Below, piece after piece: positions 19,558 through 32,000 of a stretch of 32,000 bases of DNA. This stretch comes from Candidatus Thalassarchaeaceae archaeon (lineage in GTDB: Archaea > Thermoplasmatota > Poseidoniia > Poseidoniales > Thalassarchaeaceae). How positions within the stretch are numbered: the first letter of the stretch is position 1; each line of letters starts with the position of its first letter. Made by a program: the position numbers and the translations under genes. The notes below the pieces were generated by a model, which was not told the origin of the DNA, did not search any database, and worked only from the letters and a program-made list of their open reading frames with translations. The DNA is taken from assembly GCA_045568075.1 (NCBI GenBank), contig JBJLBP010000001.1, positions 210,001-242,000 on the forward strand, in the 5' to 3' direction.

Positions 19558-21048
19558 ATGACTGATCCTCAGAATGCGCCGGAGATCCTACCGGAGTTGT
19601 CTCAGAGCGCGACTCGTTTGAAGCGCGACAAGCTAGAGCGCGTTCCTCACGACACCACTGGCAAGCACCCAGGAAAGAGGTGGGCTCAGAGCGCTCTTGA
19701 CCTCATGTTCGAGTTGGGCAATCAAGCGATTTTTAGAAATTGGAAGGCAGATTCTGTTCCCGAAGCCAATGGCGGGGCGATATATGTCGCCACACACATC
19801 AATGGGCTTGTCGATCCAATGGTGATTACACGCGTACAAAAGAAACGAGTCATCTCCCTTGGCAGGCACGATCTAACAACTCGACCGGTCATTGGATGGT
19901 GGGCCCGACGCTTCGGAAGCCAACCAGTACTGCGTCGAGCTGAGATTGAGGCCGGGATTGTCGATGCAGAATTCGCCCGCTACATCAATGATCGAGGCAT
20001 GCTAACAGTCGCTTCCTGCCTCGCCACAGGGCACTCAGCTGTCGTAATGCCTGAAGGCAAATCGCATCAAGATTCGAAGTTGCACGCGCTTCGTACAGGC
20101 TCCTCCCGTTCTGCGCTGGCCTCGGCGGCAATAGCCGATGAGAAGGGTTTACCCGCCCCAGTAGTCCAGCCCGTAGGACTTCACTGGCGCACTCATCATT
20201 GGCTCAGGACTGACCATTATGTCGAGTTCGGTGAGCCGATTGACATTCCTTCGACCTACTCGTTAGAAGACCGCGCACGCCTTGCCAATGGAGAATGGAT
20301 TGAACCCTCACATGATGACACTATTGAGATGCGTACACGTATCTTCGACGCCCTATCTCCAATGACTCCCAACGCACCAGATTGGGAAACCTATCGCGCT
20401 TGGAAACTCATTGCCCACCTCGGTGCCAACAAGGCAGGCGCCCCACTACACAGTCTGTCCGAAGAGGTCCACGCCACTCGCAAGGTCCGCGAAACCCTTG
20501 GGGCTGAGTCAGAGTCCTCGATGTTGGAAGAAGCCAAGGAAGCAGCTGAAATCCTTCATAGAAACGATCTGTATGCTACTGCATTTTCCCAATCCAACCG
20601 CCTTCGAGGCAAATCTGTTGGTGATTATCTCAAGGGGTTGCTTGGGGTGCTGCTTATGCTGGCGGGCCTCCCCATCGCCATTCCTTCATCAGGGCTACAG
20701 TGGGGTGTTGCAAAGTCCATGGCCGAAAGTAGCGATGAAGGGCTCGACTCACGAACTAGTTACTTCATGCTCGCAGCCATGTTCTCACCTATCTTTTTCT
20801 GGCCGCCATGCGCCCTCATTGGAACACTAATTCTGACTGGTGGAGCCCTTGAGATCTCCACATTGTGGGTATTCATCTTGCTAATTCTCATATTCTATCT
20901 CTCTGCATCAATCAGCATCAAGGGATACGACCTGTGGTCCGACTCAACTTCAGCCTCAAGACGAGCCAAACTCCTCAGTAGCGCAGACGGCGAGAGGCTC
21001 AATCTGCTCGTTGACTCCATCGCATCTCGCCTCGGCGCTCTCAAATAG
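19558..21048 (+). CDS. PlsC/LPLAT-family acyltransferase with C-terminal multi-pass membrane domain
   Basis: 496 aa. HX4D block YVATHINGLVDP, the later VVMPEGKSH (PEG block), and C-terminal hydrophobic segments (LLGVLLMLAGLPIAI, YFMLAAMFSPIFFWPPCALIGTLIL, LWVFILLILIFYL). Confidence 0.7.
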   Translation: MTDPQNAPEILPELSQSATRLKRDKLERVPHDTTGKHPGKRWAQSALDLMFELGNQAIFRNWKADSVPEANGGAIYVATHINGLVDPMVITRVQKKRVISLGRHDLTTRPVIGWWARRFGSQPVLRRAEIEAGIVDAEFARYINDRGMLTVASCLATGHSAVVMPEGKSHQDSKLHALRTGSSRSALASAAIADEKGLPAPVVQPVGLHWRTHHWLRTDHYVEFGEPIDIPSTYSLEDRARLANGEWIEPSHDDTIEMRTRIFDALSPMTPNAPDWETYRAWKLIAHLGANKAGAPLHSLSEEVHATRKVRETLGAESESSMLEEAKEAAEILHRNDLYATAFSQSNRLRGKSVGDYLKGLLGVLLMLAGLPIAIPSSGLQWGVAKSMAESSDEGLDSRTSYFMLAAMFSPIFFWPPCALIGTLILTGGALEISTLWVFILLILIFYLSASISIKGYDLWSDSTSASRRAKLLSSADGERLNLLVDSIASRLGALK

Positions 21049-21069
21049 GACCTGCAATAGTCAGCCATC

Positions 21070-21705
21070 ATGGACGGGAAGTCGGCGGCGAGTGCCATCA
21101 AGGGCTGGCTGGCCAGCGAGAAACTCGAATCCAGAGAAGTCTCGGATGCCCAAGCACTCATTCACTTGCACGTCAAGTACCCTCCAACCAAGCAGGGTCA
21201 TGTGTTCAACGTCGTCATTCCAAAGAACCGTAATCTTGTACTCGTTTATTCGATTACCAGAGTCGACGAAGGACAGCAGAATGAGATGCGAGAGCATGGT
21301 AAGGAGGCTCCTGACGCATGGGAGAAATGGCTCCACCAGACACGCCTCCAACTAACTAGAGCCGACCTTGATTGGGTCCTCCATGTTGGCAAGCCAAGCG
21401 ATGAAACGCCCGGCCCGTTGCAAGCTTTCAATCTCTCACGCCCCATCTGGTTTGACGGTCTGACCCAGAATGAATTCATGCATACTATGCGCCGTGTCTG
21501 GCTGACCAAACTTGAACTCATTCACCAGATTAAATTCGGTTATGGGCAAGGAATAGGAAAGCCCGGGAAAGTTGATGACTGGATTGCCAAGAAAGCTAAG
21601 AAGAGTTCAGGCAAATCGATTCCAACCCAAACTGAACCCAAATCGATTGATACAGATGAGACAGGCGGATTCGGCACCGATTTCGATCCCGCTGAATGGG
21701 CTTGA
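21070..21705 (+). CDS. Hypothetical protein, 211 aa
   Basis: ORF 21 nt after the acyltransferase gene on the same strand. Lys/Ser-rich acidic C-terminal tail. No motif that I can name with confidence. Confidence 0.55.
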   Translation: MDGKSAASAIKGWLASEKLESREVSDAQALIHLHVKYPPTKQGHVFNVVIPKNRNLVLVYSITRVDEGQQNEMREHGKEAPDAWEKWLHQTRLQLTRADLDWVLHVGKPSDETPGPLQAFNLSRPIWFDGLTQNEFMHTMRRVWLTKLELIHQIKFGYGQGIGKPGKVDDWIAKKAKKSSGKSIPTQTEPKSIDTDETGGFGTDFDPAEWA

Positions 21706-21866: not shown

Positions 21867-24800
21867 GTGATCGAAATGGAGACAGTGAAGGTAAGGAGCA
21901 GTATTGCGATGGTACTCATCATGACGATGAGCCTATTCGCAACATTGGAATTCTCCGAAAGAGCAGAAGGAAGCGAGATAGTTTTGACAGACGCGATTCA
22001 GGTCGTGAATGGAGGAACACATAGTGACAGAATGGTATCAATGGACGCAGATTCATTCGGTAATACTCACTTTGTCTGGAGCAGAAACTCTCACCACCTT
22101 TACTACAAGATGTTGGATGCTCGAGGCGACGTTCTAATTGATGAAACCCAGATTTCCAACCCGGGAACTCACCGCGCTTGGCATCCTGATGTAGCAGTCG
22201 ATACTGACGACAATGTCCACATCGTTTGGGCTGACAAGTCAAATCAATGGTCGATTCTCTATACGCTCTTGGATCCATCTCAAGACGACCAAGACGGAAG
22301 CTCCGGATTAGATGCCGTTCTTTCAATAATTAACGACGAAGAAATCGCGAGCCACGCACAAAATCGAGATTGGCCAGCAATCGCAGTGGATTCTCAGAAG
22401 AACCCACACATTGTTTGGGAAGATGCCTATGAGCAGTTGGACAAATTCTACCAACAGCCTCAGATTTACTACAAGATGCTCGAAATAGACCTTCCCGGCA
22501 GGGAAGCGATTGTCGCCATTGAGGAAACTCTTCTAACTCCTATCATTGGACACAAGGGTCACCCCGATGTCGCCGTCGATGCTGACGATTTAGTGCAGGT
22601 CGTATGGGATGACACCCGCGGTGGCAAAGTGGAAATGGTCGTACCAATCGATACCTCGGGTTCGATGAATACCGAGTGGGCAGACATGTGTGTTGTTTTC
22701 TACGGCGGTAATTTCGCTAGCGGAGGATCCTTCGAAGGACTGAAGCCGATGCTCGTCGACGCCAACATGACAGTCTTCGAGACACTTTACGCACTCAGTG
22801 GTAATTGGCCTGCTGCAGCCACTTCCGGAACTTGCGCATCAGCTTACCAGACCGGAGGCTCAGGAAGTCAAGGGCCACGATCGACCCATCTCGGCCAGAC
22901 CCCTTCTGATGACTCTGGCGGCATCCGCGAGTTAACTGAAGTAGTCTACAATGGAGGAGCGGTAAATCTTCCACAAGACGGAGGATACTACTCCGAATTC
23001 TGGGGCCCGGCTTCAACATGGGCGTGCCTCTCATGGCGAGACGCGCAGGGCCGCATGGGCAATTCCGCCAATCCACCAACTCAACTAGACCACCGCTGGA
23101 ACCCGAACGCCACCAAGATCGTCATACCAATTTCAGACGAAGGTCCGTATGGTGGAGACCCTGCACAGCAGTCTGACGACACGCAGAGTATCAACGAGGC
23201 TCACGATGCCTGCGTCATCTCAGACATCGTCCCAGTCCCGCTGATGGCGGCAGGATGGGGCCAGGGCTCGACCGATGTCGGCTCTCACATGCAAGATTTA
23301 GCTCAATGTCCGAATGGATTCGTATCTGTAGGTACGCGTACCTGTCCTGGGACGACCACCCGTAATACCAATGCTGGCGGACAGATGTACAGTTTCCCTA
23401 CAGGGTCCAGTAGTGCTGCCGACCTACAATTAATGGTTGAAGCATTGGTTTACCTTGCAACCAACAACTCCCGTGAGATATTCATCTCAATCCTCGACCC
23501 ATACGCTCTACTCGAGAGCCCATGGGCCGGTTGGACCAAGGGCGACCCAGGAACAAAGGTCGTCAATAATCGATATGTCGAGGACATTGGCCCATCATCT
23601 GACCACCAAGGATACGGGCACCTCGTTGTCGTTAACGACACGAGAATCACTTTGCAGGATGCATTCAGTCTGCACCCTTCGATTGCTATCGACACATCGG
23701 GTAATACCCACATCGCTTGGATGGATGGCCGCGCTTACGGTTTTGATATCGCAGAAAATTACGAAATTTACTACGTACGACTTCGATTGCGCGGAGCAGC
23801 CGCATGGGACGGAGCACCAGAGGGGCTCCCATCCTACGGAATCAAGCAAATTACCGACTCAGTCATATCTACAGTTGAGGGAATCGATGGGGTCGACGAA
23901 GATCGGCCATATGGTGCTAATTCACACATGCCGGAAATCCTAACCGACTCATTCGACAATGTCCACATCTCTTGGCTGGACAATGGCAATGAGACTCAGG
24001 GCGAGACCGTCATGTATGTCCGCTTGAACCATACGAATGACGACTACCCTGAAGGATTCCCACTGAATTCTCTCGCTTGGGGAGTAATCGATCCGTGGGA
24101 GGTCCACGAGGTCTCTGAGTGGGAGTCGGACAAACTCGGCCCTAACTCACCATTCGCTCCTGACCTCGGCCAACCACCAGCATTCGCTAATGATTTGGGC
24201 AGTGGTGTCCACATCGCGTGGTCTGACACCAACAGGTGCAACGATCAGAATAATCAGGGCCAATACACAATCTGCTATGTGCACGTGCTAACAGGTCTTG
24301 TAGAGGTTGCTTTGACCGAGACTGAGACCTTCTATCATACAATTGAGCCTGGCCAGCAGACGACATACAATATGACGATCTCTAACCCTACACCAGGCCC
24401 TGCTGAACTGGTCGCGGACACTTACACAGTGTATCTGAGTGGCGTTCCAAACAACTGGACTGCGACACTATTCTTTGCAACCAACCATACGCCGATTTTC
24501 GATTCGACACCAGTATTCCTACGAGGAGGCGATATCGTATCGGTCTACATGCGCGTACGTGCGCCGACAATCTATCAGGCGGATGAGGACGAATTGGCGG
24601 CAATCACAGTCCATGCTCTCTCTCACAAAGATCCTGCAATCGCCGATGAGCGTCTGACACTCACACTGATGGATGTGGTCCACGGAATAAATCTCGACAC
24701 CAGTCACTTCCAAGTAGATGTTGAACAAGGCCAATCGGCGATTTTCTCAATCACTGTGACGAATACTGGGAACGTCTACGATACCTTTGCCTTCTACGAT

Positions 24801-26972
24801 CCGGCGTCGCCTGAGGGTCAAACAGAATGGGGCTTACCATTCGGCTGGGGTGTTTCCTTCCCGATATCGCTCTCTCTTGACCCAGGTCAGTCCGTGACTA
24901 GGAACCTGCAAGTCTCTGTTCCGACCTCTCAAGAACCCGGAACCTTCGTGATTTACCTCAAGGGGTGGTCGACAGGCGAACCGGTTCTTTCCATTGACCG
25001 AGGCACCTATGATGTTCTCGAACTTTGGGTGAATGTCTCGATTAGGAGTTCGGGTAATATCGTCTTTAACCTAGGTGAAACGACTCAGCACGTGCTCCCC
25101 GGTGAGTGCGCTGAGTTCGACATCGAGGTGACCAAGCATTTCACACCAGGTCACTTGATTTTCACTACACCTGGTGGGCCCGAGGAACGACCTCCGGAGA
25201 TTTCCGAATCGACTTGGCGCTATGATCACTGGACGGTTGACCTAGACTTCACAAATGCGCCGGGAGGCAATGGAATCGGAGATAATGATCCGAGATATTG
25301 GTCAATTATTGAGATGCCTTACACGGTTACTGCAATCATGTGCGCACCGTATAATGCGACAGCTGGCCTTGGAGATTCTACCACAGTCAAGGCTCATCTC
25401 GAAGGCGCACCGAGGGTGCGCGATTCGGTTGTCTTAGTGACTAATGTCATTCAGGTCTACGACCTTGAAGCATCTGTCCCTCAGACAATTCTGCAATTAC
25501 ATCCAGGGGAGTCGTTCCAACTTGACACAAACATCGCCAATGAGGGCAATGGCCCGGATCGCTACGATATTTCAGTAAATTCGATAGTCGATTCTAATGG
25601 TAATTCTGATGTCTGGGATCTTGACATTCCACGAGTGCTATTCGAAGAATTACCGCGCGATGCATCTCAAGATCTCGCTATTCACATCAATGTCCCAGAG
25701 AAGACCTACGCGGGCGAGTACGTTGTCCGCCTCGATGTCTTCAGTGAGGAACCTTACGAGGGTACGAAGCTCAGAGACAGCATCATTCTGAACATCGAGA
25801 TTGTAGAATTCCATGATATGAGGATTGAGCTTGATCCTGCGGTTGAATCGAGAATCAAGACAACCGCTCCCGGCAGAGTTGTGCGTTACACGATGAACGT
25901 CAGCAACTTTGGAAACGTGCCGGACCAACCGTCGATTCACAACCACACTCAGACCGGAGCGGGCTGGGATGCTATTCCAGGGATGAATACTCTAAGCGGA
26001 TGGCGAGTCAACTTCGCTTTACTCGAAGGATTTGACTCGGAATTCCCAATCGAGCGCCAATGCGTTCAATTGACTGTTGGAGATACTCCGGCACCGGATG
26101 AATGCTACAAGACAGCGGTCGGAACATCGGCTGGAACTGTGATGCTACCACAGATGCAGGCCTACACGACCCTGCATCTTGTTGCGATAATTCACATTGA
26201 CCCAGCCGCCGCTCTCAGTAATCGTGAGATTGGCATCAAGGTGCTCTCTGCCTTTGGCTCCGCCGAAACTGGCGGCGATTACGATGAGACCTCTATCTGG
26301 GATGATTCATGCACCATTGATATGAATGGCGATGGGCTGCCTGACAATACTCATCCGAACTGCGATAGTAACGAGCAAATTCTTGAATTGAGATTGCGCG
26401 CTCCAGATCTTGAGATCGTGAGTGTCCAAGCTGATCAGAAGAAGGCCAAGGTTGGCGAGATGCTGTCGGTCAACGTCCAGATTCGGAATATAGGTAATAT
26501 CCACGCCACTGATGTCAACGTAGTGCTCTGCGTAGATCAATCGAAGCGCTCGATTCAGAAGAACGGCTGTCACGAGGAGAATGTCGCATACCGACAACTC
26601 GTCGAAGCCATCATGCCGGTCGGCTCCAGTGGCGACGAAGATCCACCTTCACTGACGCTACTCTATCTGGTGAAGGCTGGATCTCATGATATCGCCGTTG
26701 TTCTCGATCCCGACAACATGATCGTCGAATCGAATGAAGAGAACAATATCGAGATGATTCCTGGCAAGATGGGCTCTAACCTAGGATTCATCGACGTAGG
26801 AGTCGAGATATTTGCTCAGTACTCCGTTCCAGCAATTATCCTCGGTGCCACAATTGCCCTGATGGGCGTTGCCGGCGTCGTGATGTATGGCCGCCGAATG
26901 GAGGCTCTGACTCGCTTCGCCGAGAAGAGCAGTCTGATAGCGAACCTCAGTGATGACGACCAAGTCTTCTGA
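21867..26972 (+). CDS. Giant cell-surface protein: signal/anchor, 7x propeller-like repeats with inserted vWA domain, multiple CARDB/Ig-like domains, C-terminal TM anchor
   Basis: 1701 aa (GTG at 21867; ATG at 21876 is an alternative start). N-terminal hydrophobic IAMVLIMTMSLFATL. Seven repeats of HP.VAVD..[GD]N.HIVW.D......IYY.xL. MIDAS DTSGS at nt 22650-22664. Several xVxNxGN domain signatures. Terminal CARDB-like domain ending LDPDNMIVESNEENNIE. TM helix VPAIILGATIALMGVAGVVMYG at 26826-26891, followed by a short tail. Confidence 0.85.
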   Translation: MIEMETVKVRSSIAMVLIMTMSLFATLEFSERAEGSEIVLTDAIQVVNGGTHSDRMVSMDADSFGNTHFVWSRNSHHLYYKMLDARGDVLIDETQISNPGTHRAWHPDVAVDTDDNVHIVWADKSNQWSILYTLLDPSQDDQDGSSGLDAVLSIINDEEIASHAQNRDWPAIAVDSQKNPHIVWEDAYEQLDKFYQQPQIYYKMLEIDLPGREAIVAIEETLLTPIIGHKGHPDVAVDADDLVQVVWDDTRGGKVEMVVPIDTSGSMNTEWADMCVVFYGGNFASGGSFEGLKPMLVDANMTVFETLYALSGNWPAAATSGTCASAYQTGGSGSQGPRSTHLGQTPSDDSGGIRELTEVVYNGGAVNLPQDGGYYSEFWGPASTWACLSWRDAQGRMGNSANPPTQLDHRWNPNATKIVIPISDEGPYGGDPAQQSDDTQSINEAHDACVISDIVPVPLMAAGWGQGSTDVGSHMQDLAQCPNGFVSVGTRTCPGTTTRNTNAGGQMYSFPTGSSSAADLQLMVEALVYLATNNSREIFISILDPYALLESPWAGWTKGDPGTKVVNNRYVEDIGPSSDHQGYGHLVVVNDTRITLQDAFSLHPSIAIDTSGNTHIAWMDGRAYGFDIAENYEIYYVRLRLRGAAAWDGAPEGLPSYGIKQITDSVISTVEGIDGVDEDRPYGANSHMPEILTDSFDNVHISWLDNGNETQGETVMYVRLNHTNDDYPEGFPLNSLAWGVIDPWEVHEVSEWESDKLGPNSPFAPDLGQPPAFANDLGSGVHIAWSDTNRCNDQNNQGQYTICYVHVLTGLVEVALTETETFYHTIEPGQQTTYNMTISNPTPGPAELVADTYTVYLSGVPNNWTATLFFATNHTPIFDSTPVFLRGGDIVSVYMRVRAPTIYQADEDELAAITVHALSHKDPAIADERLTLTLMDVVHGINLDTSHFQVDVEQGQSAIFSITVTNTGNVYDTFAFYDPASPEGQTEWGLPFGWGVSFPISLSLDPGQSVTRNLQVSVPTSQEPGTFVIYLKGWSTGEPVLSIDRGTYDVLELWVNVSIRSSGNIVFNLGETTQHVLPGECAEFDIEVTKHFTPGHLIFTTPGGPEERPPEISESTWRYDHWTVDLDFTNAPGGNGIGDNDPRYWSIIEMPYTVTAIMCAPYNATAGLGDSTTVKAHLEGAPRVRDSVVLVTNVIQVYDLEASVPQTILQLHPGESFQLDTNIANEGNGPDRYDISVNSIVDSNGNSDVWDLDIPRVLFEELPRDASQDLAIHINVPEKTYAGEYVVRLDVFSEEPYEGTKLRDSIILNIEIVEFHDMRIELDPAVESRIKTTAPGRVVRYTMNVSNFGNVPDQPSIHNHTQTGAGWDAIPGMNTLSGWRVNFALLEGFDSEFPIERQCVQLTVGDTPAPDECYKTAVGTSAGTVMLPQMQAYTTLHLVAIIHIDPAAALSNREIGIKVLSAFGSAETGGDYDETSIWDDSCTIDMNGDGLPDNTHPNCDSNEQILELRLRAPDLEIVSVQADQKKAKVGEMLSVNVQIRNIGNIHATDVNVVLCVDQSKRSIQKNGCHEENVAYRQLVEAIMPVGSSGDEDPPSLTLLYLVKAGSHDIAVVLDPDNMIVESNEENNIEMIPGKMGSNLGFIDVGVEIFAQYSVPAIILGATIALMGVAGVVMYGRRMEALTRFAEKSSLIANLSDDDQVF
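22632..23465 (+). other. vWA-like domain inserted within propeller-like repeat 4 of the giant surface protein
   Basis: VEMVVPIDTSGSM (DxSxS MIDAS start, D262 at nt 22650) and the later KIVIPISDEGP (D424 at nt 23136) fit vWA strand/MIDAS positions. Flanked by VQVVWDD (before) and REIFISILD (after), which together complete repeat 4. Boundaries are approximate. Confidence 0.6.
26406..26753 (+). other. CARDB-type domain (last extracellular domain before the TM anchor)
   Basis: DLEIVSVQADQKKAKVGEMLSVNVQIRNIGNIHATDVNVVLCVD...DIAVVLDPDNMIVESNEENNIE follows the CARDB pattern (V.V.N.G...a.nv.V.l......D..n.v.E.nE.NN). Confidence 0.6.
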
Positions 26973-27012: not shown

Positions 27013-27750
27013 TCAGCGGGCCAGCCACCAAGGCAGCGGTGTGCCTTCTCTAGCGGCGATGACGCTGCCGGTAGTAGATGCGAAATCCCGCAGGAGTCTC
27101 TCGCGTAGGCCATCCATCATCACCTCAGCCTGCATCGATTGAATTCGCAGACCTTGTGAGAAGAGATCGAGATCTAATGGTCTACGAGGATGATTCAGCA
27201 TCGCGTGTGCCAGTTGCCGCTCTTCGTAGGTCTCCGATGATTCGTCAATGGTAGGAGCCACTTTCTGCATCACTTGCTGATGCAGTGCGATAATTGCGTC
27301 GCGCTGCTCATCAATCTGCTCGAGCGTACGATCCATCTCAGAAAGCATCGACATGGCTTCGACCAGAGGAAGACGACGCCTGGTACCAATCTTGTCAATC
27401 ACGTCGTCGAGCCCCCCCGGAAGCCGCGAAGACAGACGTATTGGCCCGCCTTTCGGCATTGTGCGATGCTCAGCGCGAAACAGGTTTGGACCAAGATCGA
27501 GACGCAGTGAGAAGGATTGGTTAACGGTGTACATCTTCTTTGGAGGCCCACCTTTTGCGGAAGGTACCTTCTGTGATTCAACAAAGCCAGCAGCCTCGAG
27601 AACTTTCAGATGTTTGACGACAGCCTGCTGACTGATATCAAGCAATTCTGACAGTTGCAACGGGTAATGCGGTTCTTTGGCAAGACGCTTCAAAATGTCT
27701 CGACGTGCCTTGTTTTCGAGTATAGAGAGTGCCTCATCGAAGTCCACCAC
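27013..27750 (-). CDS. ArsR-type winged-helix transcriptional regulator with extended C-terminal domain
   Basis: 245 aa. N-terminal ARRDILKRLAKEPHYPLQLSELLDISQQAVVKHLKVLEAAGFVESQKV, then a roughly 150-aa helical-looking extension of unknown function. Confidence 0.7.
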   Translation of the reverse strand: MVDFDEALSILENKARRDILKRLAKEPHYPLQLSELLDISQQAVVKHLKVLEAAGFVESQKVPSAKGGPPKKMYTVNQSFSLRLDLGPNLFRAEHRTMPKGGPIRLSSRLPGGLDDVIDKIGTRRRLPLVEAMSMLSEMDRTLEQIDEQRDAIIALHQQVMQKVAPTIDESSETYEERQLAHAMLNHPRRPLDLDLFSQGLRIQSMQAEVMMDGLRERLLRDFASTTGSVIAAREGTPLPWWLAR

Positions 27751-27825
27751 GACTTACCAACTCAAGGTTGTCTAGTCAAAGGGGGAATAAAAACCCCGGT
27801 GTGGCTTGAAATCGCTTGACGGCGT

Positions 27826-28641
27826 TCAACCCTCATCCCATCCTTTCCAAGATTCTCCACCCTGCTCTCCGTCTTTATTCGTGCTCTGATCTGTATTGTT
27901 GGGTGGCTGGGATGCTACTTCGGCCGGCTGGCCGACAAAAGGATCAGGGACACTAGATGACCGGTTCTGTGCCTGCGTGATTCCGCTTTCATCTGCTCCC
28001 GATTCAGTCTGCTGTTGGGAGCGGTACAACTCATCCGTAGTCATCACACGACCTTCGATGACAATCCCCTTCACTTGCTGTTGGGGCGCATTCGAACGGC
28101 TACGGAAGGCAAGGATTGCAAAGATAATCGCGATGAGTCCAGCGATTAGGCCGAAGCAGCAAGTCCCGAACATAGCTAGAATTGTTGGGTTGGAAATAAT
28201 TTCCATCTCAGAAGTATAATCGTCGACGAGCCACAAAGTCGAGTCACCTTCGTTATGGAGGGTGTATGAGGCACTATCTTGGACAATAAAGGCTCGAACC
28301 GGTCGGTAAGTGGGGCCATTTTCCTCGATTAGTCTGTCAGTGTGGAGAAAGTGCGGAGCGTCTCCTTCGATTTCCGTTTCTCCACCCTCATCTACCAGAC
28401 GGAGGTCAGCAGAGGGGTCAGCGCCATCTTCGACAACCCTCAATGCGACGTAGTAATGACTGTCCAGCAAATCGATTGCCGCGCTTTCACCAGATTCGAG
28501 CCTTGCCACATTTTGCTTCTCTGGGTCGAGAACCGACCCCATCTCCTCCATGGCCTCGGGCATGACTAAAATGAAGGCGACGAACAATGCAATTGAGACT
28601 CCGGAAGCCCACATCGCAATACGGCGTGAGTCGAGGGCCAC
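27826..28641 (-). CDS. Hypothetical bitopic/two-pass membrane protein with Gln/Ser-rich C-terminal tail
   Basis: 271 aa. TM1 IAMWASGVSIALFVAFILVM, a roughly 130-aa acidic domain, TM2 ILAMFGTCCFGLIAGLIAIIFAILAF, and a low-complexity tail. Sits between top6A and the ArsR-like gene on the same strand. Confidence 0.6.
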   Translation of the reverse strand: MALDSRRIAMWASGVSIALFVAFILVMPEAMEEMGSVLDPEKQNVARLESGESAAIDLLDSHYYVALRVVEDGADPSADLRLVDEGGETEIEGDAPHFLHTDRLIEENGPTYRPVRAFIVQDSASYTLHNEGDSTLWLVDDYTSEMEIISNPTILAMFGTCCFGLIAGLIAIIFAILAFRSRSNAPQQQVKGIVIEGRVMTTDELYRSQQQTESGADESGITQAQNRSSSVPDPFVGQPAEVASQPPNNTDQSTNKDGEQGGESWKGWDEG

Positions 28642-28682
28642 ACCCGACTCACCACCCTGTCACATTTGATGCTTGGTTCGCA

Positions 28683-29783
28683 TCAACGCCCCATTATCTC
28701 GGCCAGTTTTTCAGGCAGATATGTGTCTGTAACGAAATCCAGGCCGTACTTGGCGAGCGATTGCTGCTCAGCTTTCTTACCATTCTCGAGCATGTCATTG
28801 ATTTGACGTTGCCACCATTGATCAGCAAATCTGGGGTCTGATAGTTCCGCGTTAAGTGCCTGTATATCCTTGCTTGACAAATCATCCGAAGGCAAATCAT
28901 ACGCAAGTATGTCATCAGCAGTGATTCCAAGATAAACTGCACTAGGAGTTGCAAGATATTCCGAAATGTGTGCGGTCTTGATGGCACCATAAGCGATTGA
29001 TGCGTAGATTCTGTAGGACCATGGATCACCGTCGAGGAAGACCAAAACAGGTAGATTCCATTCCTCGTTCATTCGCTTGATGATACGACGGGTTGAGCGT
29101 GCAGGCTGTCCTTTGAGGTGAATCAGTGCGCAGCGAGCCGCCTCGTCGAATCCATTTTCGATTAGCCGGTCGAACATACCACCTGTCTCTATTGCCATGA
29201 TGAAATCGACGTCATGCTCGATAAGGCGGAGTTTCTCAGCCTCGACATTGTAAGGCACTCCATAGCCGGAGTCGCCAACATCGTCGCGACAATTGATTCG
29301 CATCCATTCACCACGACGATTCCGCTCCTCGAAGGTGATATTCCCGATGATTCTGGCTCCATCTTCTTCGGGACGTAGCTTGAAGTCCTCCCGCATACAC
29401 TTGGTAATGATCTCTAGATCCTCAGCGAGATTGTTGCTCTCGTTCTGAGAGCCAAACTTGCCGTGACCCCAGCCCTCGGAGATGTAGTACATCTCCCTCA
29501 GGGTTGATGACTTACCAGCGTGAATCATCTCTTCGATGAATTCTGTGACGTGCAACGCTCTGAGTAATTGTCGCGCGGAACCGAGTGAAGTCGCATCCCT
29601 CGTCGATCGCTTCTTGCCATATTTGTAGACGCCGAGTTTTGAGTCGAATGCGATGTTTTTCTTGGTTCGAACAGGCAGGGTCATCGTCGGTGGCTCGCCT
29701 TTGAGCATCTTGTTGTGCATTTCACCGGCGATATCGTGCAGCGCCTCGATTACCTGTTCCTTCGTATATCCATTCGCACTCAT
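28683..29783 (-). CDS. top6A: DNA topoisomerase VI subunit A (Spo11-like)
   Basis: 366 aa. The Toprim block AIETGGMFDRL...VFLDGDPWSYRIY and N-terminal winged-helix region match the family pattern. The start ATG overlaps the top6B stop (ATGA at 29780-29783). Confidence 0.9.
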   Translation of the reverse strand: MSANGYTKEQVIEALHDIAGEMHNKMLKGEPPTMTLPVRTKKNIAFDSKLGVYKYGKKRSTRDATSLGSARQLLRALHVTEFIEEMIHAGKSSTLREMYYISEGWGHGKFGSQNESNNLAEDLEIITKCMREDFKLRPEEDGARIIGNITFEERNRRGEWMRINCRDDVGDSGYGVPYNVEAEKLRLIEHDVDFIMAIETGGMFDRLIENGFDEAARCALIHLKGQPARSTRRIIKRMNEEWNLPVLVFLDGDPWSYRIYASIAYGAIKTAHISEYLATPSAVYLGITADDILAYDLPSDDLSSKDIQALNAELSDPRFADQWWQRQINDMLENGKKAEQQSLAKYGLDFVTDTYLPEKLAEIMGR

Positions 29784-31924
29784 TCAGAATCACCTTCCTT
29801 CAATCCGTAGTCTCCCAGAGTTGGTTGAATCGCTTCTGTAGCAGTTCCTTCGTCAGTAACAGCTTCTGGTGCCGCAACTTCGGCCACTGCTTCAACGTCC
29901 TCAGACATTGTCGGTGCAGGAGTATCTACAACATCGGTTCGCTCAGCCAATCGCCCCATCGAACCAACTTCAGGTATCTTCGCATGCTCGGCTTCAGCAG
30001 CCGCCAAAGCCTCGATTTTGCGCATCTCATCGAGTAATTTCTCATCGATCTTGGTAGCGCCGATTATCTCTCCATTACCACGGAAGAAAATCTCAGTATC
30101 AGTCCAGTCTCCACGAGCCAAACCTTCGACTGAGAAGCGGATTTCGGCTGACTGACCGGGATCGAGGGTATCCAATCGCCAAGCCCACAACCCAGTAGCC
30201 TCCTTACGACCACCTCTAGGATTCTCTGAGAACCGTACGCCTTCCCCTTCCGGCCACTTTGCGAGGATAGTATAGGCGCGTGCGCGGGCGGTGTAATTGT
30301 AGACAGTCATCGAGCAGATCGTTCGCTTTGTTTCCTTGTCCCACTCGATAGAATCCTCAAGGAAAACCGCATTCATAATACGGGTGATGACTGGTGCCAA
30401 ATCGGGTTCTTCACGGTCGAGCATTTCGCTCGATTTCCGTGATATCTCAGGGAGAATTATGTTGATGAGGTCGAATTTTTCTTGTGCTTTCTTGCGCTGA
30501 GAACTCTTCTTCAAATGGTTACGAAGACCTCGTCCTACTTCCAACATCGCCTTCCGAACTTCTTCCTTAACCTCCTCGTTATCCGCCACTGCTTCCTTCG
30601 CTTCGCTGGTGAATTGGACGTTGGTCGATGCGAGATGGATTAGTACGGCGGCCGGCCCCTTTGGTAATCCACGGCCGCCGGGATGATCGAGCCCATATCG
30701 CTTCCAATCAACGGACTCGAGAGCCTTCGTGAGCAGACAACCTCCCTGTTGATACATCAGAGGTACGCGATTTGCGAATCTGAGAACTTCGATCGGCCCA
30801 TCGGCAGTAAGATCACCTCCGAAGACAAGCCCGACCTCAATTTGGAAAGGCTGTCCTTGGCTTACTGCTGGCTTTCGAGTTACCGTCGATGCGAAGCGAG
30901 AATCGATTGCTTTCGAAAGCCCCTTCTTGATGAGAATTTCTTCAATTGGAGAGAGACAATCGGTTGGGGGTGAGAGAAGTTTGACATTTTGAAAAGCCTC
31001 GATCATTCCTTGGGCTTCATCGGCTTTGACTCGAACTGGAGTTCGTCCTTCGTCGAGTTCAGATAATTTGAGAATTTCGCGAGCAGCCCGCATACTTACG
31101 CCAGAGAAATTGTGTCGTAAGAAGGAAGTTAATTTGCGCTCTTCAGCTTCTTTCAGCATGCGCTGCAGCTGCCCAAGATGAATGCCATGCGGGTGGGGTT
31201 TAATCTCTTCAACGACACGAGGCAGACGCTCAGTGGTGCGAATCCAATTACCCTGATCAATGATTTCGCCTTCTCGATCACGAACTGTGAGTTTGATTGT
31301 TGCGTGCGGATTGACGATACTAGTCATGCGCAAGTATTGGTGGACGGATTGCCGCCCTCGTTGGTATTTTGCACGCATTACTGTTCGAATTTTGAGGCCG
31401 TGAAGAACCTCCTCTCCATCTTCAAACCAAACGTCTCTGCGTTCGCTCGACTTGGTTGCACGATTCTTACGAGTATCGAGTCCGAGGTCGACGTGGACTG
31501 CTGAAGAATCAGAAGCAATCTTGGAGACGACATGAGTCTTCGAACCGGTCGTCAGTTGGCTGTACATCACAACACCAGTGATTCCGATGCCCTGCTGCCC
31601 TCGGGTCTGGCGAATCGCGTGGAAACGCGAACCAAGGAGGAATTTTCCGAAGACGTTCTCGACTGAATCTCGTGGTATTCCTGGCCCGTTATCTTGGCAG
31701 ATAAGTTCCAATCGGTCTCCTTCCAATCGCTTGATTTCTACCTTAATGTCAGGTAAAATACGTGCCTCTTCACAGGCGTCCAAGGAGTTGTCAACGGACT
31801 CTTTGACGGCGGTGATCACAGCTCTCTGAAGGGTATCGAAGCCGAGGAAATGCTTGTTCTTCTCAAAGAACTCACTAATCGAAATCTGCTTTTGTTTGCT
31901 TGCAATTCTCTCTGCATCTGCCAT
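29780..31924 (-). CDS. top6B: DNA topoisomerase VI subunit B (GHKL ATPase) with acidic C-terminal extension
   Basis: SISEFFEKNKHFLGF, VKESVDNSLDACEE (Bergerat N box), DNGPGIP and GQQGIGITG. Start taken at MADAERIASKQ (CAT at 31922-31924); the track ORF extends to 31966. Confidence 0.9.
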   Translation of the reverse strand: MADAERIASKQKQISISEFFEKNKHFLGFDTLQRAVITAVKESVDNSLDACEEARILPDIKVEIKRLEGDRLELICQDNGPGIPRDSVENVFGKFLLGSRFHAIRQTRGQQGIGITGVVMYSQLTTGSKTHVVSKIASDSSAVHVDLGLDTRKNRATKSSERRDVWFEDGEEVLHGLKIRTVMRAKYQRGRQSVHQYLRMTSIVNPHATIKLTVRDREGEIIDQGNWIRTTERLPRVVEEIKPHPHGIHLGQLQRMLKEAEERKLTSFLRHNFSGVSMRAAREILKLSELDEGRTPVRVKADEAQGMIEAFQNVKLLSPPTDCLSPIEEILIKKGLSKAIDSRFASTVTRKPAVSQGQPFQIEVGLVFGGDLTADGPIEVLRFANRVPLMYQQGGCLLTKALESVDWKRYGLDHPGGRGLPKGPAAVLIHLASTNVQFTSEAKEAVADNEEVKEEVRKAMLEVGRGLRNHLKKSSQRKKAQEKFDLINIILPEISRKSSEMLDREEPDLAPVITRIMNAVFLEDSIEWDKETKRTICSMTVYNYTARARAYTILAKWPEGEGVRFSENPRGGRKEATGLWAWRLDTLDPGQSAEIRFSVEGLARGDWTDTEIFFRGNGEIIGATKIDEKLLDEMRKIEALAAAEAEHAKIPEVGSMGRLAERTDVVDTPAPTMSEDVEAVAEVAAPEAVTDEGTATEAIQPTLGDYGLKEGDSE

Positions 31925-32000
31925 GGCGACTACCCCCTTCAGGTCCTCCCATTGTCCTGATGACACGGGGCCTGCTTGTGGTCGAAGGTGTGCGAGAGCC

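Follow-up and report, generated by a model that had tools for sequence, protein, structure and literature searches.

A predicted seven-bladed β-propeller head with a nested VWA-like domain in a surface protein of a Marine Group IIb archaeon

Introduction

In I-domain integrins the β-propeller of the α-subunit carries an αI domain that is inserted between propeller repeats 2 and 3, and αI domains arose only in chordates (PMC4237329). A VWA (von Willebrand factor A) domain and a β-propeller also occur together in PilY1 of type IV pili, a bacterial surface adhesin (PMC11331964, PMC11525922). The present report concerns a gene at positions 21867–26972 of the forward strand of a 32,000-nucleotide stretch of contig JBJLBP010000001.1 (the window), from a Marine Group IIb archaeon (Thalassarchaeaceae, Poseidoniales). 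The open reading frame (ORF) has a GTG start, its end coordinate includes the stop codon, and its product of 1701 residues contains seven repeats, the fourth of which is split by a domain homologous to VWA domains; the metal-site motifs of this domain are conserved and the nested layout recurs across Poseidoniales. Marine Group II archaea, which are uncultured, rank with the most abundant archaea in the surface waters of the ocean. Members of the family described here are currently annotated only as "hypothetical protein", and no prior description of the family was found in the literature on von Willebrand domains or integrins in Poseidoniales, on adhesion and propellers in Marine Group II or on VWA domains within propellers. 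Both parts belong to superfamilies already known (VWA domains and BNR_4/PDIAV-like propellers); for the VWA subfamily and for the nesting of one part in the other, the libraries and literature searched contain no description.

Sequence repeats and the predicted propeller

The region highlighted in the initial annotation (window 22029–24290) spans residues 55–808. It had been described as seven copies of a repeat composed of a strand block and a Tyr-rich block, and all 14 blocks were located in the 1701-residue product where they had been placed, as were the motifs VVPIDTSGSM (residues 258–267) and IPISDEGP (residues 420–427). The number of repeats was likewise recovered by a hidden Markov model (HMM) built from 59 units of distant relatives only (Chloroflexota, Thermoplasmata and others), with none taken from the 1701-residue protein, which finds exactly seven units with independent E-values (i-Evalues) of 1.8e-13 to 5e-5. 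The units follow the pattern P-x-I-A-V-D ... H-I-V-W ... I-Y-Y and all lie on the forward strand. Repeat 1 covers residues 58–96 (window 22038–22154; i-Evalue 2e-10, four strands in the model described below), repeat 2 residues 105–138 (22179–22280; 1.8e-13) and repeat 3 residues 170–206 (22374–22484; 4.7e-13), while the fourth unit, matched at residues 232–254, is interrupted. Repeat 5 covers residues 603–639 (23673–23783; 8.4e-13) and repeat 6 residues 688–723 (23928–24035; 1.3e-8). The weakest is repeat 7 (residues 771–808, window 24177–24290), which is matched over residues 771–804 with an i-Evalue of 5.3e-5 and is modelled at lower confidence. The sole extra match of the HMM (residues 1241–1246, i-Evalue 0.51) is below significance.

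An AlphaFold2 model of the head (residues 36–830), computed with an alignment of 36 family members, has a mean predicted local distance difference test score (pLDDT) of 75.8 and a predicted template modelling score (pTM) of 0.78, with very high confidence in blades 1–4. Secondary structure assigned by DSSP shows about four strands per repeat, ill-defined in blades 6 and 7. A Foldseek comparison of the model with the PDB returned 83 matches at E ≤ 0.001, the best being the GH145 structure 5mum with a template modelling (TM) score of 0.62 normalised on the 394-residue target, followed by CylK, PL25 lyases (TM 0.52–0.53), PL42 lyases (0.55–0.57) and PLL/PHL lectins. Several of these alignments are about 800 columns long, beginning in blade 1, passing over the insert and ending in blade 7, and the propellers of 5mum, CylK, PL25 and PL42 are ones that we take to be seven-bladed. 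Uninterrupted relatives built from the same unit, namely the PDIAV/BNR_4 (PF15892)/SBBP (PF06739) propellers of Chloroflexota, Thermoplasmata, Asgard archaea and others, also usually have seven repeats (one protein, P0059, has 7+7) and, unlike the 1701-residue protein, have no VWA insert. The propeller that had been proposed from the repeats is borne out to this extent, and the model would fit a closed seven-bladed ring. The N-terminal strands at residues 36–50 (SEIVLTDAIQVV..., window 21972–22016; DSSP strands E3–5 and E9–15 of the model) resemble by eye the outer (D) blade strands VLIDETQIS and VVVNDTRIT, and because of this likeness they may provide the velcro strand that completes blade 7.

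The repeats belong to a PDIAV/BNR_4/SBBP-like class. NCBIfam model NF053835 scores 37.1 bits, under its curated cut-off of 90, and PF15892 does not match the 1701-residue protein, although PF15892 or PF06739 is precomputed on several homologs. Searches of Pfam and NCBIfam with the whole protein, the insert and an insert-deleted construct gave a weak SBBP/PDIAV signal for the repeats. An Asp-box/BNR motif reading was rejected, the G-to-W spacing being incompatible with SxDxGxTW.

The domain inserted in blade 4

The first half of repeat 4 (residues 232–249, HPDVAVDADDLVQVVWDD, window 22560–22613) comprises strands A and B, which are strands E195–202 and E208–214 in the numbering of the model, and is matched at HMM positions 2–24 only (i-Evalue 3.2e-6). 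The match stops at position 24, where the insert starts, and the Tyr-rich half of the repeat (REIFISILD, residues 536–544) follows about 285 residues later, after the insert, which therefore occupies approximately residues 250–535 (window 22614–23471). This second half (residues 536–598, window 23472–23660) contains strand C, a loop and strand D; its EIFM/EIYM sequence is kept in all homologs of the family alignment. Strand C, modelled as E501–508, comes straight after the last VWA helix, H479–496. In residue numbers, the first VWA strand (from 254) comes after the end of strand B at 249, and strand C (from 536) after the end of the last VWA helix at 531. Two linkers of about four residues would thus hold the domain, which the model nests in the B–C hairpin of blade 4. 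General knowledge of the fold suggests that the B–C loops share a face with the D–A loops, the face that bears the αI domain in integrins.

The division of repeat 4 by about 285 residues, as first described, is not a peculiarity of one sequence. Among the species-representative genomes, 532 stretches encode a relative, and the layout of the locus was examined for the best 80 of them. These 80 are all from Poseidoniales, mostly Thalassarchaeaceae, the top match is 99% identical, and in each of them the insert is preceded by four repeats, the last of which is truncated (80/80). Wherever a homolog extends over the region, its insert is found inside repeat 4. The position of the insert, the closure of the propeller and the likeness to VWA domains had been fixed beforehand as the three points on which the layout could fail; the insert was found within the repeat and not as a flanking domain, and neither an open array nor an insert unlike VWA was obtained. 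A search with an insert-deleted query found no insert-less version in Poseidoniales. Apparent insert-less homologs were rejected as C-terminal fragments, a frame-shifted sequence (P0232), a TatD chimera (P0240) and a gene call that starts inside the VWA domain (P0265). The frame shift of P0232 directly follows DDTR and P0240 is a half-propeller fused to TatD, both likely artefacts of assembly or gene calling. P0065, a transketolase whose N-terminus carries the insert's first 35 residues, also looks artefactual.

Relationship of the insert to VWA domains

The insert was related to VWA domains mainly through an intermediate family. A profile of the insert searched against 1.84 billion representatives matched 275 proteins; outside the propeller family the matches are diverse multidomain proteins with a compact domain of about 200 residues, co-linear with the insert in two blocks. 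The insert aligns with this compact family in hhalign at 99.9% (E 1.4e-36). The compact family in turn aligns over its full length, at 96.9% (E 1.4e-10, 151 columns), with a small set of canonical VWA sequences, namely four aligned domains and one αL sequence that was only partly confirmed by the PDB-search alignment, and in this register DxSxS falls on DxSxS and SDEGP on (T/S)DG. P0145 alone of the four domains was checked against Pfam, the other three having been picked by an HMM seeded on P0145 and P0117. Compared with the PDB, the compact family matches collagen VI (2.3e-7), the integrin αL I domain (1.8e-4), anthrax toxin receptor, BatB and integrin β, and essentially all of its significant matches are VWA domains. 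In addition, 4 of 10 compact relatives have sub-threshold Pfam VWA matches at co-linear positions.

Fold prediction is consistent with these comparisons. The insert has an α/β pattern both in the model of the head and in a model of its own. Modelled alone, the insert has a pTM of 0.79 and a strand–helix order that fits the VWA fold, and in Foldseek integrin β chains make up 9 of its top 14 matches, followed by PTMP1, MDN1-MIDAS and VWF A3. The VWA-like character that had been read from the sequence is upheld by the transitive profile comparison, by these weak but consistent structural matches and by the invariant DxSxS and β4 Asp, and the insert is best described as a divergent, enlarged VWA-like domain, assigned chiefly by transitive homology.

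By sequence, the compact family is the true family of the insert. The two have three invariant motifs in common as well as a conserved cysteine. In contrast to the insert, which is about 85 residues longer and has more cysteines, the compact domains are about 200 residues long, standalone or in tandem, and occur without propeller repeats in 73 of the 74 proteins examined, in diverse bacteria and archaea. This subfamily (P0117–P0214, for instance P0137, P0142 and P0184) is found in many unrelated multidomain proteins and is marked by the motifs DTSGSM..EW..LC, EDWGP and SDEGP. Tandem pairs are sometimes seen, as in P0117 (residues 389–612 and 705–930). It has no curated NCBIfam model, and its Pfam VWA scores are sub-threshold only.

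Putative metal site and cysteines

Conservation of the putative metal site was assessed in an insert alignment of 16 sequences that are 50–82% identical to the query. The DTSGSM of the insert, whose DxSxS motif is D262-T-S264-G-S266 (window 22650–22664), is invariant in 16/16 sequences; in the DTSGSM of the compact relatives no variation is seen at D and the second S, and T, S and G are conserved at ≥90%. S423-D424-E425 of IPISDEGP (window 23133–23141), at the end of strand β4, is invariant in both the insert and the compact alignments. Thus D262, S264, S266 and D424, the four residues that had been proposed as metal ligands, are all invariant in the insert alignment. D262, S264 and S266 align with the DxSxS of integrin αL and of canonical VWA domains, and D424 with the D of αL "IIITD" and of canonical LLSDG/LTDG. 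By residue count, the αL residues concerned are presumably D137, S139, S141 and D239. Residues D137, S139, S141 and D239 of αL belong to its MIDAS (metal ion-dependent adhesion site; PMC4237329). The description of the site as a textbook MIDAS holds for the DxSxS and the β4 Asp, which are present, but "textbook" is an overstatement because the Pfam VWA models miss the insert entirely.

A candidate fourth ligand is E377 in SEFWGP (residues 376–381, window 22992–23009). Of the E-x-W-G-P motif, the insert and compact alignments both keep E, W and G invariant, and the insert alignment also P. HMMER puts this motif by the loop of αL T206, offset by one, whereas hhalign leaves the canonical Thr unaligned. 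Integrin β I-like domains have Glu in place of Thr at the MIDAS, which would fit an invariant E377.

The insert has six invariant cysteines (275, 323, 387, 449, 481 and 493), which are all the cysteines of the first 790 residues and suggest three disulfides. C791 and C803 flank the last propeller blade.

Relatives and variants

The nearest insert-less propellers are from Chloroflexota, at 27–30% identity. The sequence LDPSQDDQDGS, located in blade 2 between strands C and D (window 22191–22215), recurs near-verbatim in Chloroflexota propellers (KLDPSQDDQDGS), a possible sign of a specific relationship, or of transfer, linking marine Chloroflexota with Poseidoniales. In the Chloroflexota/Dehalococcoidia relatives P0044–P0047, P0269 and P0275, repeat 1 is itself split by an unrelated domain of about 175 residues (approximately residues 40–215), and the split falls after HMM position ~22, between strands B and C, as in repeat 4 of the archaeal protein. 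Because the two split points are equivalent, the B–C hairpin seems to be a recurrent site of domain insertion in PDIAV/BNR_4-like propellers.

Further elaboration is seen within Poseidoniales. In P0030, P0037 and P0072 a second insertion of about 330 residues (approximately residues 550–880), with weak Big_7 and cohesin-like signals, lies between the last VWA strand and the last helix, giving a domain within a domain within a blade. None of three inserted domains, namely that of the Chloroflexota proteins, the nested second insert of P0030 and the insert of P0056, was assigned to a family by Pfam. Eight other proteins (P0021–23, P0026, P0029, P0032, P0033 and P0035) combine the same propeller and VWA head with a different stalk, in which long arrays of Ca2+-binding repeats of the thrombospondin type 3-like kind (PF02412; DxDxDGxxD) replace the CARDB-like Ig domains and a transmembrane helix stands at the end. 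The metagenome-assembled genome Cayman_51_deep (Ca. Thalassarchaeum betae) has two copies (L021 and L079, with inserts 85% and 72% identical to that of the query), and paralogs therefore exist.

Gene, stalk and genomic context

Hydropathy and domain content predict that the whole gene (21867–26972, forward strand) encodes a type I membrane-anchored surface protein with a head, an Ig-like stalk, one transmembrane helix and a short tail. A Kyte–Doolittle scan reveals hydrophobic segments at residues 9–30 and 1648–1675 only. The first (window 21891–21956), preceded by a K/R-containing n-region, is a probable signal peptide or N-terminal anchor. The second contains the predicted C-terminal transmembrane helix (residues 1652–1675, window 26820–26891; hydropathy maximum 2.29), which is followed by a 26-residue tail starting with RR. 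Between head and membrane, approximately residues 810–1640 (window 24294–26786) form a stalk of Ig-like β-sandwich domains, in agreement with the initial annotation. Pfam matches here are CARDB (residues 1512–1628, E 1.8e-13), DUF7507 (three stretches) and NPCBM_assoc (two stretches), with weak matches to Ig_VWA7 and DUF11, and the NCBIfam model choice_anch_T is below threshold. The protein as a whole is strongly acidic (D+E 13.9% against K+R 5.2%) and has 14 N-x-S/T sequons.

The neighbouring genes encode an acyltransferase, a DUF2299 protein, an ArsR-type helix-turn-helix regulator, topoisomerase VI A/B and RFC, and no gene for a β-subunit-like partner is evident among them. The flanking segments of the window (27013–31966, reverse strand, and 19558–21705, forward strand) also hold a 271-residue membrane protein without a family, an ordinary archaeal chromosomal context. 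Alternative-frame ORFs inside the gene, at 23437–23943 (forward strand, 168 residues) and 21919–22326 (reverse strand, 135 residues), are presumably spurious.

Proposed function and alternative explanations

We favour, as the probable reading, a surface protein with a seven-bladed head and a VWA domain nested in blade 4 that serves cation-dependent adhesion and is integrin-like by independent origin. In this proposal the membrane-distal head would be a seven-bladed propeller with a Cys-rich VWA domain of about 285 residues in the blade 4 hairpin. Because the ends of a VWA domain lie at the pole opposite the metal site, general knowledge of the fold indicates that the DxSxS/Asp site (D262, S264, S266, D424 and possibly E377) should face outward, away from the propeller. 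The site would hold a divalent cation whose coordination is completed by an acidic group of the ligand, allowing cation-dependent adhesion to particles, polymers or other cells, and some 830 residues of Ig-like domains would act as a stalk leading to the transmembrane helix and short tail. Metal-dependent ligand binding and adhesion is accordingly put forward as the most likely function of the head, judged from its motifs.

Several results weigh against this proposal. Parts of blades 6 and 7 have low pLDDT, and the structural neighbours of the head are enzymes or lectins rather than adhesins. Pfam VWA models match neither the whole protein nor the insert, even at E ≤ 10, and NCBIfam gives no VWA match. 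Searches of the PDB found no VWA domain, either by phmmer with the insert or with the insert profile, which gave only chance-level matches to actinohivin. The direct hhalign comparison of insert and canonical VWA reaches 49.8% over 55 columns. The model of the insert is only moderately confident (pLDDT 71.5) and its Foldseek matches are weak (E ~0.02, TM ~0.35, none at E ≤ 0.001). Finally, the equivalent of the MIDAS Thr was not identified, HMMER and hhalign being in disagreement.

The enzymatic neighbours raise the alternative that the propeller attacks algal polymers as a polysaccharide lyase or glycosidase, with an active site in the central funnel, and that the VWA domain is an accessory for substrate binding or regulation. 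An association with organic matter derived from phytoplankton is known for Marine Group II archaea, and the neighbours of the head include GH145 (5mum, 5mvh, 5muk), PL25 ulvan lyase (5uam, 5uas), PL42 rhamnose-glucuronate lyase (7esl, 7esk), an Alteromonas lyase (6jq9) and sialidases. Nevertheless, identity to these neighbours is 6–9%, a match at the level of the generic propeller fold, and no CAZy-type Pfam or NCBIfam family was matched. The neighbours indicate no single activity, since lectins (PLL, PHL) and a Friedel–Crafts enzyme are also among them. The conserved D, H, W and Y recur in every blade and look structural, with no conserved catalytic signature, and we consider an enzymatic head unlikely.

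The invariance of the metal-site motifs bears on a second alternative, in which the insert is a VWA-derived scaffold without metal or ligand binding, a structural or oligomerisation module (for example in lateral contacts of a surface layer) that keeps DxSxS for folding. The ~85 extra residues relative to the compact domains, the six invariant cysteines, the lack of an identifiable Thr ligand and the blindness of Pfam to the domain would all agree with such a role. Yet DxSxS, the β4 Asp and E-x-W-G-P are invariant in the insert and retained by the compact domains, as is usual where a metal site is maintained, and integrin β I-like domains are equally elaborated and still functional, so that a purely structural insert appears improbable. 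There is very little chance that the repeats form no closed propeller and that the nesting is an artefact of modelling or alignment: the low pLDDT of blades 6–7 and the weak repeat 7 (i-Evalue 5e-5) would fit an open array, but the pTM of 0.78, the TM-score of 0.62 on a 394-residue propeller with alignment over the whole head, the usual seven repeats of uninterrupted relatives and the split of repeat 4 in the sequence of every homolog argue against it.

A more far-reaching version, for which the odds are long, is that Poseidoniales independently evolved a working integrin-like receptor head in which the VWA domain switches between low and high affinity and regulated adhesion is coupled through the stalk. 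Such a switch would work by movement of the last VWA helix, which runs straight into strand C of blade 4, and adhesion to phytoplankton or particles would depend on cations, be regulated by force or ligand and be coupled via the stalk to the cell. If true, αI integrin allostery would have an archaeal analogue, and this would be a main factor behind the particle-attached way of life in the most abundant archaea of the surface ocean. For the simpler adhesin, the family, which is present in hundreds of species-level genomes, offers a concrete candidate with a defined putative metal site. The analysis also exposes an uncurated VWA subfamily (DTSGSM / EDWGP / SDEGP) and the B–C hairpin as an apparently recurrent insertion site.

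Comparison with known systems

PilY1 resembles the archaeal protein in content but differs in arrangement, its VWA domain being N-terminal and its propeller C-terminal, in tandem, where the archaeal domains are nested; it is pilus-associated and bacterial, and no sequence relationship between the two was seen. The archaeal "integrin-like" family of PMC9258230 was considered and set aside as an unrelated Asgard family. The integrin β I-like domain, the top structural neighbour of the insert (at the weak E-values and TM-scores given above), is likewise a VWA domain enlarged by loops and nested in another domain, but its host is the hybrid domain whereas the archaeal host is a propeller.

The closest parallel is with the I-domain integrin α-subunits (αL, αM, α2), in which a VWA domain is looped out of a seven-bladed propeller via two short linkers, with DxSxS and a β4 Asp, an Ig-like stalk, a single C-terminal transmembrane helix and a short tail. 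The αI-like layout noted in the initial annotation is retained as regards seven repeats with a VWA domain looped from one of them; it does not extend to the nature of the repeats or to the insertion site. The archaeal repeats are PDIAV/BNR_4-like and those of integrin α are FG-GAP, for which Pfam and NCBIfam gave no match in the whole protein, the insert or the insert-deleted construct. No Ca2+ hairpin motifs occur in the propeller, the sole D.[DN].[DN]G match being at residue 1485, outside it, and GFFKR is absent from the tail. Common ancestry of propeller and inserted domain with integrin α, for which the same overall layout (propeller with VWA, Ig-like stalk, single transmembrane helix, short tail) could be cited, is effectively refuted, since these defining features (FG-GAP, DxDxDG hairpins, GFFKR) are lacking, the insertion sites differ, αI domains are confined to chordates (PMC4237329) and the insert has its closest relatives among standalone domains of prokaryotes. 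The preference for convergence over integrin ancestry that was voiced at the outset therefore stands. In the archaeal protein the VWA domain lies inside blade 4, in its B–C hairpin, in contrast to the position between repeats 2 and 3 in integrins, and the resemblance is one of analogy and not homology: a clean convergence on the αI solution that arose independently, from unrelated propeller repeats and at a different insertion point.

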